IMG/VR virus record: IMGVR_UViG_2671180849_000011
Strand: one strand, 5' to 3'
DNA from: a virus
Taxonomy: Duplodnaviria > Heunggongvirae > Uroviricota > Caudoviricetes
DNA: 13,205 bases
A program made the position numbers and the translations under genes. Below are positions 1 to 13,205 of the stretch, piece after piece. Each line of letters opens with the position of its first letter. The first letter of the stretch is position 1. The notes under the pieces were generated by a model. The model was not told the origin of the DNA and did not search any database. It saw nothing but the letters and a program-made list of their open reading frames with translations.

Positions 1-88
1 CCCCCTGGGCACCGGACCCGCCTCAAAGGTCGGATCATCACAATTGGCGGGGCGATTTTATAGTCGCTTTAAGGTTTATAGACCGGAG

Positions 89-118
89 TTGACTTACCTT
101 CCGGCAACCTGCTAACAT
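89..118 (+). promoter_or_regulatory. candidate sigma70 promoter (TTGACT - 18 bp - TAACAT)
   Basis: -35 TTGACT at 89-94, 18-bp spacer, -10 TAACAT at 113-118; a 10-bp inverted repeat CCTGCTAACA (108-117) / TGTTAGCAGG (142-151) overlaps the -10 and could be an operator. Confidence 0.4.
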
Positions 119-124
119 TAGTCT

Positions 125-215
125 CGCGAGAGGTTGATTTTTGTTAGCAGGTTTTGCCCCGCATCAAAAGGATACCGGAGAAGAGCCCCTTTGTTAACAC
201 TTAGGGGCTTTTTTC
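125..215 (+). ncRNA. candidate small RNA of about 90 nt (promoter-to-terminator unit with no ORF)
   Basis: Predicted start about 125 after the -10; no ATG/GTG-initiated ORF before the terminator; 5' end GCGAGAGGTTGATTT (126-140) is antisense to leader elements at 8510-8527 and 9052-9069 of - strand mRNAs. Confidence 0.3.
184..215 (+). terminator. rho-independent terminator
   Basis: Stem AGCCCCT (184-190) / AGGGGCT (203-209), 12-nt loop, then T-run 209-214; sits just beyond the stop (266-268) of the convergent 708-aa gene. Confidence 0.6.
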
Positions 216-265
216 TTGCCTGGAGTTTATCCGGTCAGGCTAACTTATTGATTTAGATCACAATA

Positions 266-4334: not shown

Positions 4335-5231
4335 TTATTTAAACTCTAAAATGCCTTTTTTATTTTTTCTAACATTTCTCCACAATATTTCGGGATAATC
4401 TCCGCAGGTTTTATCTAACAATATTTCGAATCCCATCCCAATAAGCTTATTTGCAAAAATAAAAACAGGTCTGGTTAAATGCCAGTATTCTTCCGGTTTC
4501 CAGATTTCACCCTCTATTTTCCCTTTATGTTGGCTTACCTCTTCTGCGGTGTAAAAATCCTCCTGAATCTTTGACAAAAGGATCGGGCGACGTTTGTTTA
4601 AATCTTTGTATTTGCTTTCCCACAGTGATCGCATTATGCCTTTAGCCTCACTCTCACCCAGGACAATCCAGCCCCCATCGGTTACATCTTTCACAGGACG
4701 GCCCCGGCGTGGCTTGTCACTAACAGCGTTAATTTGAGGCGCTTTAGTGTCTTGGGTAGGCAATTGCACCACCTTAGCCTTTTTAGCTTGCTGTGTGGCT
4801 TGTTTTGGGGCTTCTTGCGGGTGTTTCTCTTCACTACCTGCATTGCTCATAGGTTGTATTCCTTGAGCGTCACACATTTTGCAGATTTGAGAAGGAGTAA
4901 TTAACAGTTTGTAATGATTAGATTTGCCTTTACTTTTAATTACTGAAATAAGCCCGGCATTTTCCAGAGTTTTGATAGATTCAATGATTTTTCTATCACT
5001 CACACCACATATTTTTGCTAAGGTCTGCTCTGAGATAAATATTTCTTGCCCGTTTAAATGAAAACCTGCCATTTTTCCATAGATTGTTACCTCTATCAGG
5101 TCTAAATTAAATCGCTCTTTTGTTTTTCCAGTCTTTTTATTAGCAATTGTTGTTGCTACTGGTTTATCAAAAGTATACTGAATGAGGCGTTCGAAATGGG
5201 GATTAAAAACCTCCCCGTAATTACTTGCCAT
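4335..5231 (-). CDS. winged-helix DNA-binding protein (298 aa), replication-initiator-like or antirepressor-like
   Basis: ATG at 5231 preceded by GGGGGA; N-terminal wHTH-like segment ISEQTLAKICGVSDRKIIESIKTLENAGLISV; central P/Q/K/A-rich linker with KPRRGRPVK (AT-hook-like); architecture recalls lambda O-type initiators (from memory, unverified). Confidence 0.5.
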   Translation of the reverse strand: MASNYGEVFNPHFERLIQYTFDKPVATTIANKKTGKTKERFNLDLIEVTIYGKMAGFHLNGQEIFISEQTLAKICGVSDRKIIESIKTLENAGLISVIKSKGKSNHYKLLITPSQICKMCDAQGIQPMSNAGSEEKHPQEAPKQATQQAKKAKVVQLPTQDTKAPQINAVSDKPRRGRPVKDVTDGGWIVLGESEAKGIMRSLWESKYKDLNKRRPILLSKIQEDFYTAEEVSQHKGKIEGEIWKPEEYWHLTRPVFIFANKLIGMGFEILLDKTCGDYPEILWRNVRKNKKGILEFK

Positions 5232-5244
5232 AGTTCCCCCACAG

Positions 5245-5460
5245 TTATTTATTAATGTTGTTGGTGTATTTAGCCAGCTCACGCTCAAGGCGGAGACGAT
5301 TCAGTTCTAAAATTGCCGCTTCAATGTGTGGATATTCTCCTTTGTGTTTACGAATAAATGCATAAACGGAAGTTTTTCGAAAGTTACCTTTAAGCACGTT
5401 CTCGACGATTTCGTCAGTAGTCCAGTTTACCAGCTGGCTTATCGGTCCGGTTTTAGCCAT
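5245..5460 (-). CDS. hypothetical small protein (71 aa)
   Basis: ATG 5460 preceded by SD AGGAGA at 7-nt spacing; stop 13 nt before the next start; basic, possibly DNA-binding. Confidence 0.5.
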   Translation of the reverse strand: MAKTGPISQLVNWTTDEIVENVLKGNFRKTSVYAFIRKHKGEYPHIEAAILELNRLRLERELAKYTNNINK

Positions 5461-5592
5461 GATTCAATCTCCTGTTAGCTCACTAACCTGTGCGATATAT
5501 GGTTAAAAAGAAACGGGAACTTAAGACAAGCCCCCGCATTTTTGTTTAAGGAAATTCACTATGATGAGAATTACCCTATGATTTATATTTTA

Positions 5593-5742
5593 TCAGCTAT
5601 TTGCGAGATTGTCAACAATCTTTTTGTATTTATCTATCATTTTTTCTTCAAGGTTGTCGATTGCAGCTACTCCGGCTATGTAGGCAACACCGCACCACAG
5701 TACAGCCAGGTTGATGATCGCTATAGCGTCGCTCAGTTCCAC
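5593..5742 (-). CDS. small single-pass membrane protein (49 aa, GTG start), not in ORF track
   Basis: GTG 5742 preceded by GGAGG at 5-nt spacing; translation VELSDAIAIINLAVLWCGVAYIAGVAAIDNLEEKMIDKYKKIVDNLANS is one hydrophobic helix plus charged tail; stop TGA 5593-5595. Confidence 0.3.
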   Translation of the reverse strand: MELSDAIAIINLAVLWCGVAYIAGVAAIDNLEEKMIDKYKKIVDNLANS

Positions 5743-5786
5743 GTTGACCTCCGGATCTGTTTCTCCCACTATCTATAATCTTATCA

Positions 5787-5808
5787 TATTGACAACCAAT
5801 TGTCAATA
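5787..5808. promoter_or_regulatory. palindromic operator overlapping candidate leftward promoter
   Basis: Perfect inverted repeat TTGACAA (5789-5795) - CCAA - TTGTCAA (5800-5806), arms extend to 9 bp; on the - strand TTGACA, 17-bp spacer, TAAGAT; a third half-site TTGTCAAT at 5929-5936. Confidence 0.4.
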
Positions 5809-6424
5809 GGAATCATTATCATTTAGGCGAGCTATAGGTACAAACAAGTCCACAGCAAAGGGGTAAGCATTATTAATGGCCCCTACCGTGTCAAAACCAA
5901 AGTCACTTATAGCATTTATGCAATAAGATTGTCAATGGCCCACAAGGGAGGGAGAGCACTTTTTGCCTTAAGCGCTCTAAAATCGATTCTAACGCGATTT
6001 AGAGGTCAGGTAATGCAATTGCACTACTCACACAAGTTAATGCAGCCAGAAGGCCATTTAGGGGCCTTATTTTCGATTTCTGAGCGTCCTGTTACGTGTG
6101 TGCATACACGGGCGCGCGGAATCCCTCGCTTAAACGGTCCGGATTGGAAACAGAAGTCTCTTATCCGGACTCCACATTATATAGCTACGTGCTATCGCAC
6201 TACGCTACCCACACACAGGCCGACGTAGTCGGTTTAGCTGTATAGCTAAAGTCACAGAGTGACCCACACACAGATTGCCTAAAGAGTCGCTAATGCTCTT
6301 TAGGCTTTCATTTGTGGGTTAAGCTTTTCCCTTAGAAAACCTTCCCCACTCTCTGATCCCTCCCCATTCCCCTTGGGGGGTTAGGGGGGGATCTGTTGTG
6401 TGATCTATTAATTTATCTATTAGA

Positions 6425-6645
6425 GTGAGAAATTTTCAGGGGTACTAGTGAGAAATCTTCGGTAGTAGTGGTGAGAAATTCTCAGGGGTGTGGGTAGGTA
6501 TGGTGGTTAAGTAGTGAGAAATCTTCAGTAGTTAGAGGCTGTGTATCATGGGGGCAATGACTGCAAAACGGGAAAGCATGACTGTATAAACACACAGGTG
6601 TGAAAATTCTTCACAGGTTAGCGACACCGGAAAAATCTTCAGTAG
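6425..6645. repeat. iteron-like direct repeats, six copies of about 18 bp (consensus GTGAGAAATCTTCAG(G/T)(G/A)G)
   Basis: Copies at 6425-6442, 6448-6465, 6471-6488 (exact 23-bp phasing), 6514-6531, 6598-6617 (degenerate), 6630-6645; preceded by G-run GGGGGGTTAGGGGGGG 6375-6390. Confidence 0.6.
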
Positions 6646-6655
6646 TGTCTATCTG

Positions 6656-6753
6656 CATATGTGGGAAATACACCCTTATTGACCTATTTTGACTAGCAAA
6701 CCTCTCTCTTCTCTCTTTGCTCTGATTTCCTCTCATGTGTGGGAAATATGCAT
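6656..6753. repeat. second repeat family CAT(A/G)TGTGGGAAATA (two copies) flanking a CT-rich tract
   Basis: catatgtgggaaata at 6656-6670 and catgtgtgggaaata at 6734-6748; pyrimidine-rich tract 6701-6734; a related copy aaaatgtgggatata near 7047-7061. Confidence 0.45.
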
Positions 6754-7488
6754 ACCAACACCCGTTGATTTTATCAATAGCTATGTTGACCGGGCATCAT
6801 AAGTGTGGCCCCTGAGGCAGTCCATCCTTCCCTCACACAGGACAATGAATATATAAAGAACATGAAAGACTGTTCACACCAACACGCCGATAAATTGCCT
6901 GAAGAGGCTTACATGGGGTTATTGTTGTGTGGGTAATGGTGATCATGCTAACAGATTATGTTAATCAGATGTAAATTCCGATTTTGTGGTCTGCATGGAG
7001 CAAACTATACTGGTTAAATGATCAGGGGAATGACTACAAAACAATCAAAAATGTGGGATATAGCCATCTACACGTCTAATGTGCTGTGTGGGGTGTTAGT
7101 GCATGCTTACATGTAAGTCATTGATTTGAAGGGTTGGGAAAATTGCATTTAACATAATAGATCTTATCTACACTAATAAAGCGAACTACAAAATCTGATT
7201 TAAAAATCATGATCAGTGGGCACAGAATTTACGTACAGCCACCTGAATAAATAATGTGCACAACATACAGCAAAGCTTAAGAATTAACATAATAGCAACG
7301 TGGTCAGTAGTGGTGTGATATTTGAGAATTGTTAGAAGAAAAAAGGGAGGTGGGGGAGCGCCTGCCTGGCACCTCAGACGAGTTACCCATAAGCTCAAAT
7401 ACCGCTAATGGATATTTCTGACACCCACACCCAAGACCGCTTTCAGCACATAGCCATATAGCCACACAGGACCGCACAGGATGCAATT

Positions 7489-7698
7489 GTGATAACAAAA
7501 AATGGGGGTGTAATAGGGTAGGTCACCTTTCATCAAAATCACTTCTACGACGTTTCCAGAGTGATAACAAGAAAACAGGCCTCTAAGATTATCTGTGCCT
7601 CGTTTTTAGCTTTTTGTGTGGTTACCAGGTGAAGAGGAAATGTTAAAAACTGTTCATTTTATGCACAAACTAGTCAGGGTGATACCACAAAATGAGGT
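7489..7698. repeat. third repeat family GTGATA(A/C)CA-A-rich-GG, three copies
   Basis: gtgataacaaaaaatggggg 7489-7508, gtgataacaagaaaacagg 7561-7579, gtgataccacaaaatgagg 7679-7697; DnaA-box-like TTATGCACA at 7659-7667. Confidence 0.45.
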
Positions 7699-7887
7699 GT
7701 AAGAAATCCAGCTGCAGATAATCTTGCAGCCAGATTTTGCAGTTTTTTAGGGTATGTTAAATTTGACAAAAATAGAGAAAAGGCTTATTAAGCTAACTTA
7801 TTGATTTTATTAGTATTACGAAAAAGGGTTACACCCTCTCTCTTACTCTGTCAACCGGGCGGTTGTGGCATAAAACGGATTAAATCA

Positions 7888-7946
7888 ATAAATAGGCATT
7901 AAATAGGGGATAAATAGGGGTTAATTGAGGGATAAATAAAAAGGGG
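7888..7946. repeat. five tandem 11-bp phased repeats (A/T)TAAAT(A/T)GGGG
   Basis: Units start at 7888, 7899, 7910, 7921, 7932 (exact 11-bp period); last unit merges into the terminator stem. Confidence 0.55.
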
Positions 7947-7959
7947 CCGTGATGGCCCC
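7931..7959 (-). terminator. rho-independent terminator of the membrane-protein gene
   Basis: Stem GGGGCC (7943-7948) / GGCCCC (7954-7959), loop GTGAT; - strand tail TTTTTATTTATC (complement of 7931-7942); 8 nt past stop codon 7968-7970. Confidence 0.6.
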
Positions 7960-7967
7960 CTGGTAGG

Positions 7968-8498
7968 TCAGAACAGTTTTTTGCTTTTTCTCCAACTAAC
8001 GCCGCGTTTGCCTATGCTCAGCCAGCCGCCAGCGAATCGGGTACCTGCGGTAACACTAGCTCCCCTGGTACCTACATGTGCATAAATACCTGCTCCACTG
8101 CTACCACCGCTTCTACGGCTTTTTCCGCCATCGATATCAAGGAGAACACAGATCGCATTCCACCAAAAGCCGATCACCCATATTGCAAATGCTAAGCCTA
8201 AAACGCCCCAGGTGACCGCCCACCCTTCCAGACTAGTGGGGAAGTAGAAAGCATTGAGAACAGCATTTATAGGGCGGATCAGGAGAAAATCTATAAAACC
8301 AGTATCCACATGAAACGGTCCATTGCCGAACTTGCTACTGCCAATAAATAAGGTAGCAGGGTAAAAGAAGATAGCCATTGCCCAAGGGCCAATAAGCAGG
8401 ATAGTAGCCCCGAACTGTGCGGCCTCCTTAAAGAACATTTTTACTATTGCTTTAAAAAGCTTTTTGTTTTCTGATTCTTTATCTTTCTGAAATAACAT
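7968..8498 (-). CDS. polytopic membrane protein (176 aa) with Gly/Ser/Arg-rich C-terminal tail
   Basis: ATG 8498 preceded by AAGGGG; about four hydrophobic segments; own terminator; position and type fit a superinfection-exclusion or abortive-infection moron (inference). Confidence 0.6.
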   Translation of the reverse strand: MLFQKDKESENKKLFKAIVKMFFKEAAQFGATILLIGPWAMAIFFYPATLFIGSSKFGNGPFHVDTGFIDFLLIRPINAVLNAFYFPTSLEGWAVTWGVLGLAFAIWVIGFWWNAICVLLDIDGGKSRRSGGSSGAGIYAHVGTRGASVTAGTRFAGGWLSIGKRGVSWRKSKKLF

Positions 8499-8509
8499 GA
8501 CGGTACCCC

Positions 8510-8527
8510 TTTGCGAGAAGTTGAATT
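8510..8527 (-). promoter_or_regulatory. conserved leader element copy 1, 12 nt upstream of ATG 8498
   Basis: + strand TTTGCGAGAAGTTGA (8510-8524) identical to 9052-9066 at the same distance from a start codon; 13/15 match to 126-140. Confidence 0.5.
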
Positions 8528-8555: not shown

Positions 8556-8816
8556 CTATTTATTCTTCTTAAATCTCCCATCCTCCTTTCTCTCGATATT
8601 GTGGTAGTCGGCATAGGCTTTCAGCCTTCTGTGCACGGTGGCGATCCCCACACCGAAGGTTTTAGCGATAACCTGTCGTGGTGTTCCCTCTTCAACCATC
8701 TTGTACATCTGTTCCGCTACATCCATTTGTGCGGCTATCTCCATTTGCTTTGCCTTAGCTTTAATTTCAGCTATCAGCTCTTCCCTCAGTCTCCTGATAT
8801 CTTTAGCCCCCGTCAT
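8556..8816 (-). CDS. small HTH DNA-binding regulator (86 aa)
   Basis: SD GAGGAG 3 nt before ATG 8816; N-terminal predicted coiled coil; C-terminal HTH TPRQVIAKTFGVGIATVHRRLK of the resolvase/Mor-like type (by eye). Confidence 0.6.
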   Translation of the reverse strand: MTGAKDIRRLREELIAEIKAKAKQMEIAAQMDVAEQMYKMVEEGTPRQVIAKTFGVGIATVHRRLKAYADYHNIERKEDGRFKKNK

Positions 8817-8839
8817 AAACTCCTCTCAATGCTGTTCAT
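8813..8839 (-). CDS. 8-codon upstream micro-ORF (MNSIERSL) overlapping the HTH gene start
   Basis: ATG 8839 preceded by GCGGAG; stop TGA 8813-8815 overlaps ATG 8816 (ATGA); lies in an 18-bp direct repeat that duplicates the SD-start region. Confidence 0.2.
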   Translation of the reverse strand: MNSIERSL

Positions 8840-8916
8840 AAACTCCGCTCAATCATGATTAGTAGAACATCCAGGATAGCCAGACCTATTAAAAATGCTT
8901 TGCCTCCTTTGCCCAT
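8836..8916 (-). CDS. 26-aa hydrophobic micro-ORF (MGKGGKAFLIGLAILDVLLIMIERSL)
   Basis: ATG 8916 preceded by GGAGG at 6-nt spacing, 1 nt after stop of the upstream micro-ORF; stop TGA 8836-8838 overlaps ATG of the 8-codon uORF (ATGA). Confidence 0.25.
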   Translation of the reverse strand: MGKGGKAFLIGLAILDVLLIMIERSL

Positions 8917-8917
8917 C

Positions 8918-9040
8918 TCACACCTCCACACACAGAGCTAACATCAGGGCTAACACTCCAACCACCTCAATTGCCTTAACAATGTGTGGGTGATGAAACC
9001 TGGCCTTTTGCCATGCGCTGGCACTGTTCTTGATACCCAT
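8918..9040 (-). CDS. 40-aa micro-ORF with C-terminal hydrophobic helix (track ORF extends to 9145)
   Basis: Internal ATG 9040 preceded by SD AAGGTGA at 5-nt spacing and by leader element copy 2; ATG 9145 has no SD and the N-terminal extension is low-complexity. Confidence 0.3.
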   Translation of the reverse strand: MGIKNSASAWQKARFHHPHIVKAIEVVGVLALMLALCVEV

Positions 9041-9051
9041 AACTATCACCT

Positions 9052-9069
9052 TTTGCGAGAAGTTGATTT
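9052..9069 (-). promoter_or_regulatory. conserved leader element copy 2, 12 nt upstream of ATG 9040
   Basis: + strand TTTGCGAGAAGTTGA (9052-9066) identical to 8510-8524; GCGAGAAGTTGATTT (9055-9069) is 14/15 identical to 126-140. Confidence 0.5.
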
Positions 9070-9336
9070 GTTTGTTCGGTTGGGGTGCTATCAATGATCC
9101 CCTTCCTTGATTCGAACTATAGCCGGGTAAATCACTGGAAAACATTGATATTGATCAAAAGATATCTATCACGAATGAAAAAGTTATGATAGATGATAGG
9201 AGTCGCATAGCTGCGACCTTGGCTGTGTGCCAAGCCTGCAAAGCAGGTCAGGGATGAGGTGACGTATTGATGGGATTGATAGAGGTCTGAAAATACCGTT
9301 ACCACGCTAATTATTAGAATTTATATAATCAGGATG

Positions 9337-9365
9337 TTGACAATGTGAGTAAATACTGATATAAT
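9337..9365 (+). promoter_or_regulatory. perfect-consensus sigma70 promoter (TTGACA - 17 bp - TATAAT) with AT-rich upstream region
   Basis: TTGACA 9337-9342, exactly 17-bp spacer, TATAAT 9360-9365; AT-rich 9305-9335 (UP-element-like); faces the capsid genes. Confidence 0.65.
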
Positions 9366-9373
9366 ATACAGTA
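9354..9373. promoter_or_regulatory. LexA-type SOS box overlapping the -10 element
   Basis: TACTGATATAATATACAGTA matches the E. coli-type consensus TACTG(TA)5CAGTA at all ten flanking positions with an AT-only core. Confidence 0.45.
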
Positions 9374-9508
9374 TACCGTGAATCATTTAGCGAAGGTGGT
9401 TTACCGTATTTTCCTCCAAAGTAACGGCGACCAGGTAGCGGTGCCGCCTTATAAATAACACTACCCTGATCATCGTTGAGTGGTCGATTAATTCTCCTAT
9501 TGGGCTAG

Positions 9509-9517
9509 TTATCCACA
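9509..9517 (+). promoter_or_regulatory. consensus DnaA box TTATCCACA inside the capsid-operon leader
   Basis: Exact 9-mer; also the 5' arm of an inverted repeat CCACACAG (9513-9520) / CTGTGTGG (9539-9546). Confidence 0.3.
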
Positions 9518-9845
9518 CAGTTTTCTTTTGCGGGTTTTCTGTGTGGGTAGCTATCCCGAAAGGTATTTCCCCGCTGATGTGACCGCAGCCTGAACTGATT
9601 CGGGGGAGTGCCTTTCGTGATAGTGCTCTCTAGCAACCGTAACCATGCAGTGAACTATCAGCCAACTGTTGTTGGTTTTCCCCATATGGAATAGCCCCCG
9701 CTTGGACGGTGCGGGGCTATCTCCCTCTCCTTATATCAATCCCCCTTTAGATTTCCGGCATAACTTTTCGGCCCGAGCCTGTCGTGGTTTGAGAGGTTAT
9801 ACCTGAACCCTTTGAGGGGAGTTAATTTAAATCGCAGGTGATCAA

Positions 9846-12458: not shown

Positions 12459-12913
12459 GTCCGAAAGTCCGTTGCACCATAGACAAGCGCATGATGGATA
12501 AGCTGCATAAAGAGCTCTCACAGATGGAAGGTGTAGCGGTTGGCTGGGATGACGGGAAACACTATAGCGGCCTGAATTACGCCACACTGGCAGCAATTCA
12601 TTCTGAGGGGTGGGGTGATCTGCCTAAGCGCTCCTTTATGGAATCTGCCCACGCAGCAATGCTCTATGAGAGCCTGAGACACACAAAAGCCCTGATTAAT
12701 GCAATCGTAAAGGGTGGGAGCTCTGAGGCCGTCAGGAAGCGAATAGGCAAGCGATACGCCGACATTCTGGAGACTATCCTGATTAGTGGGCAATTCAGCA
12801 ACAACAAGGTTTCCCCACAATGGGCAAGCTATAAAGGCTTCAATGATGCCATGCGCCACTATGATGATTTGATCGGTGCAATCAAATACTGGTCAAATGT
12901 GGGGAGAGGTTGA
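12455..12913 (+). CDS. hypothetical protein (152 aa), translationally coupled
   Basis: ATG 12455 overlaps upstream stop (ATGA); GGAG 8 nt upstream; no recognisable motif. Confidence 0.55.
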   Translation: MSPKVRCTIDKRMMDKLHKELSQMEGVAVGWDDGKHYSGLNYATLAAIHSEGWGDLPKRSFMESAHAAMLYESLRHTKALINAIVKGGSSEAVRKRIGKRYADILETILISGQFSNNKVSPQWASYKGFNDAMRHYDDLIGAIKYWSNVGRG

Positions 12914-12929
12914 AAAGAGGTAATAGTGT

Positions 12930-13005
12930 TCTTTTGAGGCCGTAGTGAGGCTAATCACGGTCCGGCTTAAAAAAGACAATAGGATGTCTTTTGAGGCCGT
13001 AGTGA
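12930..13005. repeat. two copies of a 19-bp direct repeat TCTTTTGAGGCCGTAGTGA
   Basis: Exact copies at 12930-12948 and 12987-13005 (57-bp spacing), similarity extends upstream (AATAG..); 17 nt after stop of the 152-aa gene. Confidence 0.5.
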
Positions 13006-13205
13006 TACACCACAAATCAGCCCCTTTCCACTTCTTTTCTCGCGATTGGTCCCTTGTGAGAATCCTTTATCAGGTATGCATTGTCCCGTGCATGAGCGGT
13101 CGATAGAGCCAGCCTCTTTCCCGGACTGGTTAGGATTTAGTGCGCTGAGAGAGCGCCGCTATCACTGTTAGCCTGTTTATCGTTGCCTGGTTTGTGCATC
13201 ACTGC

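Follow-up and report, generated by a model that had tools for sequence, protein, structure and literature searches.

The stretch of DNA considered here spans positions 89 to 215 of the 13,205-nucleotide (nt) virus record IMGVR_UViG_2671180849_000011, the whole of which we refer to as the window. The window is a complete circular Escherichia coli plasmid of ~13.2 kb and matches circular E. coli plasmids of 13.2-13.7 kb end to end (megablast; 82-92% coverage, 90-95% identity), and the stretch sits in a spacer of ~550 bp (12914..13205/1..265) between two convergent operons, one carrying capsid and tail genes on the + strand and the other a leftward tape-measure gene. An original prediction had proposed that this unit lacks an open reading frame (ORF) and yields an RNA with a 5' end complementary to two distant leaders, and every computational test that was run has supported it. 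Judged from sequence, 89-215 is in our view probably an unannotated gene for a trans-acting small RNA (sRNA) that uses a 5' seed to control a gene for a 40-residue hydrophobic peptide and a gene for a variable membrane protein. The related elements used for comparison are grouped into lineage A, which is the window type (14 elements), lineage B (L010) and lineage C (L019/L020); a further element, L011, contributes leaders only, the sRNA position lying outside its contig.

A candidate promoter-to-terminator unit and its repeated 15-mer

The promoter that had been proposed for the unit, which we call P1 (89-118, + strand), is present and consists of the -35 element TTGACT (89-94), an 18-nt spacer ending in the extended -10 motif TGC (TGn, 110-112) and the -10 element TAACAT (113-118), which together give nine of 12 matches with the TG in a promoter scan. 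Because promoter-like sites occur in the window at chance density (20 were found where 24 +/- 5 are expected), this match alone means little. Transcription from P1 would yield an sRNA of ~90 nt (126-215, + strand), with the transcription start site (TSS) placed at G126 (+/- 1-2 nt), 7 nt after the -10 element, and the 3' end in the U-tract of an intrinsic terminator (177-215, + strand). The good terminator expected at 184-215 is likewise in place, with a core stem of AGCCCCT (184-190) and AGGGGCT (203-209), a 12-nt loop and a U-tract of six Ts at 209-214 followed by C215; the terminator scan was limited to loops of at most 8 nt, which explains why this hairpin was not called. The predicted fold is strong, at -32.9 kcal/mol for RNA 126-216 (z = -4.0 against shuffles) and -33.2 kcal/mol for RNA 125-218 (z = -3.6).

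No initiation codon backed by a Shine-Dalgarno (SD) sequence was found in the unit, as had been claimed. Its sole ORF, which starts with TTG and runs from 134 to 256, is without usable SD spacing, crosses the terminator and is absent in the other lineages; a small protein as the product was rejected, since no ORF is conserved among lineages. Searches of Rfam returned no family at the gathering threshold, and at E <= 5 the single match was to ctRNA_p42d, which covered the terminator only and scored 23.6 bits against a gathering score of 50. The candidate sRNA is annotated in none of the RefSeq records.

The predicted RNA would begin with the seed GCGAGAGGUUGAUUU (126-140, + strand), of which positions 126-137, GCGAGARGUUGA, form the core common to the lineages. 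The corresponding 15-mer, GCGAGAGGTTGATTT, occurs exactly at 126-140, and both of its reported further copies were found on the + strand, at 9055-9069 with one mismatch (14/15) and at 8513-8527 with two (13/15). Among 3000 random sequences of 13.2 kb from a first-order Markov model, copies with at most two mismatches averaged 0.029 and two or more copies arose at a frequency of 3e-4. A fourth near-copy of the core, GGGAGAGGTTGA (11/12), lies at 12902-12913 on the + strand at the stop codon of a tail-completion-like gene and recurs in several lineage-A elements; it is absent from L010 and is therefore probably coincidental.

Both distant copies of the 15-mer are antisense to the leaders of - strand mRNAs, as had been described, although the distance to the start codon is 14 nt in each case (9041-9054 and 8499-8512) and not 12 nt. 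The first target site (9055-9069, - strand) reads AAAUCAACUUCUCGC in the mRNA sense and lies 14 nt before AUG 9040 of the 40-residue peptide gene, directly 5' of the SD sequence AAGGUGA. The second (8513-8527, - strand) reads AAUUCAACUUCUCGC and lies 14 nt before AUG 8498 of the variable membrane-protein gene, 5' of the SD sequence GGGG. The anticipated pairing over 12-15 bp holds for both: the 9040 gene has 15 bp, one of them G.U, and at the 8498 gene 12 bp are followed by a U.U mismatch and 2 further bp. The two leaders are alike over 32 nt (repeat family D13) and are clearly paralogous.

When the 20-nt seed was scanned against both strands of the element, the two leaders gave the two best duplexes (-24.5 kcal/mol for the first site and -21.8 kcal/mol for the second) against a background of -10.9 +/- 2.6 kcal/mol and a next-best start region at -13.3 kcal/mol, a ranking that is in part a consequence of the way the sites were identified. 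To open the seed takes 4.8-6.3 kcal/mol and to open each target ~2.9 kcal/mol, which leaves a net energy of about -13 to -15 kcal/mol. In the minimum free energy (MFE) structure the first six nucleotides of the seed are unpaired, and GGU at 132-134 pairs with ACC at 174-176. The seed is purine-rich and SD-like (GAGAGG), and the target is pyrimidine-rich and anti-SD-like; local pairing of the target with its own SD (GGUGA, GGGG, GGAG) is predicted in five of six leaders from three lineages.

Predicted target genes and conservation across lineages

The first target gene (8918-9040, - strand) encodes the 40-residue peptide MGIKNSASAWQKARFHHPHIVKAIEVVGVLALMLALCVEV, the C-terminal half of which is hydrophobic and which found no family match in protein-family searches. 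Read from the sequence of L011, its counterpart keeps the pattern IKNSA..W.K...HHPH and a hydrophobic tail ending in CVE, and a 40-residue gene is called at the equivalent position in L018/L020. It opens a leftward operon (9040-7968, - strand) in which it is followed directly, across a TGA-G-ATG junction, by an ORF for a 26-residue hydrophobic peptide (8836-8916), at whose position a 35-residue gene is called in L018/L020. An 86-residue protein matching HTH_7 (8556-8816; Pfam E-value 3.4e-6, with PHROG DNA-binding families) is encoded between the two target sites. The second target gene (7968-8498) encodes a predicted membrane protein of 176 residues, for which no defence or Pfam family was found above threshold, and a terminator at 7961-7941 closes the operon. 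An 11-bp repeat, ATAAATAGGGG, present in 4.6 copies (7888-7938), adjoins this terminator.

The second target gene occupies a variable cargo slot. Across the relatives the slot holds unrelated membrane or secreted proteins (of 173-176, 179, 195, 225 or 236 residues, or a signal-peptide protein), none of which matches a known defence family, and it is cleanly deleted in L009. The slot is always preceded by the same conserved leader of ~45 nt, and target site 2 is kept where the gene behind it has been replaced (L004/L007/L008, L005, L011, L017, L019) or deleted (L009), so that by its sequence this leader looks like a portable control cassette ahead of the cargo slot. Target site 1 is conserved in lineage A, L011 and L019.

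The sRNA unit is conserved beyond its surroundings. Nine relatives, with a mean identity of 90-95% over their aligned regions, match region 60-260 at 96.5-100%. In lineage A the whole spacer is nearly invariant while the neighbouring end of the tape-measure gene diverges sharply; what little variation the unit shows is confined to the promoter spacer and the apical loop of its first stem-loop. The window type can be written as TTGACT-18-TAACAT-7-GCGAGAGGTTGATTT followed by the terminator. L010, whose tail-completion protein is 50% identical to that of the window, reads TTGACT-16-TG-TAGTAT-7-GCGAGAGGTTATCGA; its middle has diverged, and its terminator keeps the stem but not the loop. In L019/L020, where the HTH protein is 86% identical and the spacer otherwise unrelated, TTGACT-17-CACACT-6-GCGAGAAGTTGAGG is joined directly to a long terminator hairpin and U-tract. 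Common to the three lineages are the -35 TTGACT, the position of the -10 after a 16-18-nt spacer, a gap of 6-7 nt, GCGAGARGTT(G)A at about +1 and a terminator, the rest being unalignable; these are exactly the parts that a short RNA with this 5' end would need. The compact rebuild in lineage C, with the seed fused to the terminator, argues for selection on those parts.

Measured against shuffles, the predicted RNAs give z-scores of -4.0 (lineage A), -6.2 (B) and -4.2 (C), and the first six nucleotides are free in A and B. Seed and terminator persist around a diverging middle, a pattern of conservation that trans-acting sRNAs usually show. On the side of the targets, in all elements whose leader positions are available (lineage A, L011 and lineage C), CAACYTCTCGC (mRNA sense) adjoins the SD of each leader; its distance to the AUG, where a start codon was read (the window and its relatives, and L019), is 13-14 nt. 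Relatives that keep the leader 15-mer while lacking the unit had been named beforehand as grounds for giving up the proposal; instead, 16 of the 16 related elements in which the unit position and both leader positions are available keep both (L001-L009, L012, L013, L017, the window and L019/L020). The variation at seed position 7 preserves pairing. Lineage C has an A there and pairs 12/12 with both of its leaders, and lineage A has a G that forms a G.U pair with its own leaders and would pair with the C of leader 1 in L011; the combinations are thus G.U or A-U as observed and G-C as predicted for L011, and never A.C.

A metagenome scan yielded two further lineage-A elements. For further lineages, scans of IMG/VR and GTDB genomes gave nothing or chance matches, and the protein searches were narrow. 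Complete E. coli contigs of lineage B (14-15 kb, such as those encoding HGX8664196.1 or MCT6149949.1) and of the L011 type (13.2-14.0 kb, such as that of EEY2953763.1 at 13.3 kb) exist; the former were not found in plasmid or complete-genome collections and the latter not in complete genomes. If the unit acts as we propose, lineage-B leaders would be expected to be complementary to GCGAGAGGUU / GCGAGAGGUUAUCGA. The motif at the left end of L010 is the homologue of a TGATAG-repeat region at about 9268-9290 of the window and does not represent a leader.

Proposed mechanism and competing explanations

Starting from the observed sequence features, their conservation and the pairing potential, we infer the following course for transcription, start site, pairing in vivo, direction of control and role. 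A sigma-70 promoter, TTGACT-18-TGC-TAACAT, would start transcription at about G126, and the terminator would end it at about 215, giving a noncoding RNA of ~90 nt. Its 5' end, GCGAGAGGUUGA(UUU), would base-pair in trans with the leader element CAACUUCUCGC immediately 5' of the SD of two genes of the leftward operon. Leader element and SD would form a portable cassette, such that whichever gene follows comes under the control of the sRNA. In the case of repression, a helix of 12-15 bp ending 1-4 nt from the SD would keep the membrane proteins low while the element is a plasmid. In the case of activation, the SD-like seed would free the SD from weak pairing in cis with the anti-SD-like target. 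We lean modestly towards repression of translation, given weak hairpins in cis, an apparently constitutive promoter and products that are small membrane proteins; the anti-SD-like character of the target makes activation a live alternative.

Several points weigh against an sRNA of this kind. The transcript and its start site are predicted, promoter-like matches are no commoner in the window than expected by chance, and the -10 element of lineage C is poor. The GGU of the seed is paired within the modelled sRNA structure. A plain duplex scan with the 36-nt 5' fragment did not single out the leaders; such scans, like those with the whole sRNA, are uninformative because GC-rich parts dominate them. 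RNAalifold found only two compensatory pairs between lineages A and B. The comparison covers only three lineages, and the leaders of lineage B lie outside its contig, so that seed and leaders could be compared in lineages A and C. An inverted repeat (106-153) formed by AACCTGCTAACA (106-117) and TGTTAGCAGGTT (142-153) encloses the -10 element, the TSS and the seed; it is present in L010 as GCTGTTAG/CTAACAGC with two position-matched double changes and absent in L019 (lineage C), and a 90-nt RNA does not explain it. It could serve P1 as an operator or, in a transcript that arises by read-through or from a second promoter, form a hairpin. Finally, all three sites have one orientation on the DNA, as direct repeats, and a role at the level of DNA would also explain their likeness.

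The original prediction had itself offered such a role as an alternative, in which the three copies of GCGAGARGTTGA are operators for one plasmid or phage DNA-binding protein, for example the 86-residue HTH_7 protein, and no RNA pairing takes place. The copy in the unit lies at +1 to +12 of the promoter, a classic position for a repressor, and is bracketed by the inverted repeat with its matched changes in lineages A and B, as would be seen for a co-evolving palindromic operator; moreover, the HTH protein is encoded between the two leader copies. Against this, the 12-mer is without dyad symmetry, with the exception of TCTCGCGAGA, which is palindromic at the unit's copy in lineage A only, and no promoter was evident in the scan at the leader sites. 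The leader sites have a fixed orientation and a fixed phase of 13-14 nt to the AUG, beside the SD, which points to a role at the level of RNA or translation. An operator function also leaves unexplained why the -35, the -10 and the terminator are kept around the first site in three lineages, and why the variants at position 7 preserve pairing. The control region 9085-9295 contains a different motif, TGATAG/CTATCA, that is a better candidate for the sites of the HTH protein. On this computational evidence the operator alternative is weakened, and we regard it as unlikely.

In that control region, which separates the leftward leader from the rightward promoter, there are many TGATAG/CTATCA half-sites, for example TTGATATTGATCAA, TATGATAGATGATAGG and ATTGATGGGATTGATAGAGG, which are kept in L019 and partly in L010. 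These half-sites are likely operators, perhaps for the HTH_7 protein.

The functional molecule might alternatively be a longer + strand RNA, started at a second promoter-like site or processed from the 3' untranslated region of the capsid-tail operon, in which a hairpin at 106-153 displays the seed in its loop in the manner of a kissing loop and which may also act in cis on tape-measure read-through from the opposite strand. The second site, ATCACA-16-TATAGT (37-64, + strand; nine of 12 matches in the scan), would speculatively give a form of ~145 nt, and its TATAGT is conserved in L010. This possibility would account for the position-matched double changes in the inverted repeat between lineages A and B, and an RNA from 71 to 216 does fold with that hairpin (-56.7 kcal/mol, z = -4.95). 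The capsid-tail operon, moreover, ends at 12913 with no strong terminator before 184-215, and on the - strand the terminator hairpin is without a U-tract, so that the unit may be reached by read-through from the tape-measure gene. Upstream of the unit, ~450 nt are almost invariant in lineage A, and several blocks are kept in L010 and L019. However, the hairpin is not in the MFE structure of the L010 equivalent, the inverted repeat is absent in lineage C, and what all three lineages share is the geometry of P1 with the seed at +1. With the same seed and the same targets, the longer RNA is a variant of the ~90-nt sRNA and not a true alternative to it, and we think it quite improbable.

The conserved blocks of this upstream region (12914-13205 and 1-88), seen in L010 or L019, are TTATCAGGTATGCATT, CCGTGCATGAGCGG, CTCTTTCCCGGA, GCCTGTTTATC, ACCCGCCTCAAAGGTC and GGTTTATAGTCG. 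A small hairpin surrounds CTCTTTCCCGGA, its stem changing from CCAG/CTGG to TTAT/ATAA. The conserved ~450 nt could be a packaging site or another RNA. Within the same region the window carries an insertion of ~57 bp flanked by a 17-bp direct repeat, TTTTGAGGCCGTAGTGA (12932-12948 and 12989-13005), which L012 and L013, the relatives checked, do not have.

It is very unlikely, in our estimation, that the unit has no dedicated function and combines a shared terminator of the convergent operons, a fortuitous promoter match and a 12-mer left as the relic of a duplicated leader cassette. The chance density of promoter-like matches, the place of the unit between convergent genes, where a terminator is expected anyway, and the paralogy of the two leaders over 32 nt would all be in keeping with this, but a relic would not keep the -35, the position of the -10 and the seed at +1 in three lineages while the stretches between them are replaced, and conservation is higher in the unit than in the coding sequence beside it. 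Plasmid copy control by a counter-transcribed RNA was rejected, the duplex with the rep start region reaching only -6.3 kcal/mol and the unit lying ~4.1 kb from rep and ~6.2 kb from the iterons on the 13.2-kb circle, as was the seed as a rep iteron, the iterons GTGAGAAATYTTCAGKRGT having a different motif.

The carrier plasmid, known systems and significance

Of 5426 complete E. coli genomes, seven have the plasmid type to which the window belongs, in each case as a plasmid and never in the chromosome; many draft assemblies have it too, and one related plasmid record is a 39.6-kb trimer. Carriers include E. coli E275a (plasmid pE275a_13) and strain 190 (plasmid unnamed4). No paper on this 13-kb plasmid family was found in the literature. 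Besides the operon described above, the leftward (- strand) genes include those for the tape-measure protein (266-2392) and a Rep-like initiator (4335-5288) and several of unknown function. The 2.5 kb from 5461 to 7967 are nearly free of ORFs, and five iteron-like repeats within them, GTGAGAAATYTTCAGKRGT at 6424-6646, probably mark the origin. The rightward (+ strand) genes follow a promoter of perfect consensus, TTGACA-17-TG-TATAAT (9337-9365), and include those for a major capsid protein, a tail-tube-initiator-like protein and the tail-completion-like protein ending at 12913. The capsid operon has an untranslated leader of ~480 nt (9366-9845), parts of which, such as GGCGACCAGGTAGCGGTGCCGCC, are conserved in L011 and L019.

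Four proteins of the window have homologues in the rV5-like phage Bas57, namely the tail tube initiator (51% identity), a bas57_0011-like protein (45%), the tape measure (26%) and the major capsid protein (24%), and no terminase, portal or sheath gene was found on the 13.2-kb window plasmid. With a Rep-like initiator, structural homologues from rV5-like phages (Vequintavirinae) and none of those three genes, the plasmid is possibly a phage satellite of an undescribed, plasmid-borne kind. Neither the core 11-mer (exact) nor either 15-mer (at most two mismatches) occurs in Bas57, the one rV5-like genome tested, and the leader and intergenic region gave only chance matches against 50,697 phage records; a promoter motif or other signal in a helper phage, or a target there, was dropped on these grounds.

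Among characterised RNAs, the trans-encoded enterobacterial sRNAs RybB, OmrA/B and MicA combine a 5'-terminal seed with a Rho-independent terminator. The candidate resembles them in its sigma-70-type promoter, 5' seed, variable middle, terminator with U-tail, conservation of seed and terminator, and imperfect pairing of 10-15 bp near the ribosome-binding site of several mRNAs. It differs from them in its origin on a phage-like plasmid, in having its predicted targets on the same replicon, in matching no Rfam family and in its SD-like purine seed, which would pair with an anti-SD-like element upstream of the SD rather than with the SD or AUG. Anti-antisense activators such as DsrA and RprA on rpoS, GlmZ on glmS and RNAIII on hla offer a parallel for activation, in that the sRNA would pair with the upstream strand of an SD-occluding leader hairpin, and CUUCUC-SD pairing is predicted in five of six leaders. 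Here, in contrast, the predicted cis hairpins have little stability (about -4.5 to -9 kcal/mol for a whole 66-nt leader), and an sRNA helix 1-4 nt from the SD could hinder the 30S subunit.

The original prediction had likened the unit to type I toxin-antitoxin systems or to immunity control. In tisB/istR-1, zorO/orzO and shoB/ohsC the antitoxin RNA acts in trans, and the likeness lies in a small hydrophobic peptide gene whose leader is complementary over ~12-20 nt to an sRNA with its own promoter and terminator; location on a plasmid would fit addiction. A formal type I system is not borne out, as the sRNA unit lies ~4.3 kb from the peptide gene (8918-9040) on the circle and the two are not adjacent, the second target is a variable cargo gene, and the peptide is the first cistron of an operon with a regulator. 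The CI RNA of P4 and the c4 RNA of phages P1 and P7 are immunity RNAs processed from the transcript of their own targets, which act on termination or block ant translation. Like the candidate as proposed, they are short RNAs of E. coli satellites or phage-plasmids that recognise a pair of short complementary sites in an early or regulatory operon. The candidate departs from this type as well, since RNA and targets are on opposite strands, the unit is separate with its own promoter, and no Rfam C4 match was found even at E <= 5.

The nearest biological parallel is SviR, a trans-acting sRNA of the Vibrio cholerae phage satellite PLE that is conserved in all PLEs and regulates mRNAs of both PLE and ICP1 (10.1101/2022.04.08.487710). 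Both would be sRNAs of a phage-parasitic element, conserved throughout the family and with targets among the element's own mRNAs. Unlike SviR, which also targets mRNAs of its helper ICP1, the candidate has a motif that is absent from Bas57, the two are unrelated in sequence, and the element here is a plasmid that we only presume to be a satellite. One may speculate further, at a level that we consider doubtful, that the plasmid family consists of satellites of virulent rV5-like phages (Vequintavirinae) and that the sRNA is their central switch, an SD-mimicking RNA that, through the portable leader cassette, times the regulatory first gene and the cargo (on or off) relative to helper infection.

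As trans-acting sRNAs are already a well-known class, the finding would extend existing ideas and overturn none. The leader cassette is modular and only ~30 nt long, which makes the rules of seed-target pairing easy to test and the cassette possibly reusable. If the interpretation is true, these plasmids would follow PLE, with its SviR, as a second case of a phage-parasitic element controlled through RNA, and a recurrent, uncharacterised E. coli replicon would be found to carry an unannotated regulatory RNA. This would offer a tractable handle on the regulation of the replicon, in the form of a single RNA, a pair of short target sites and a cargo slot whose gene can be swapped.

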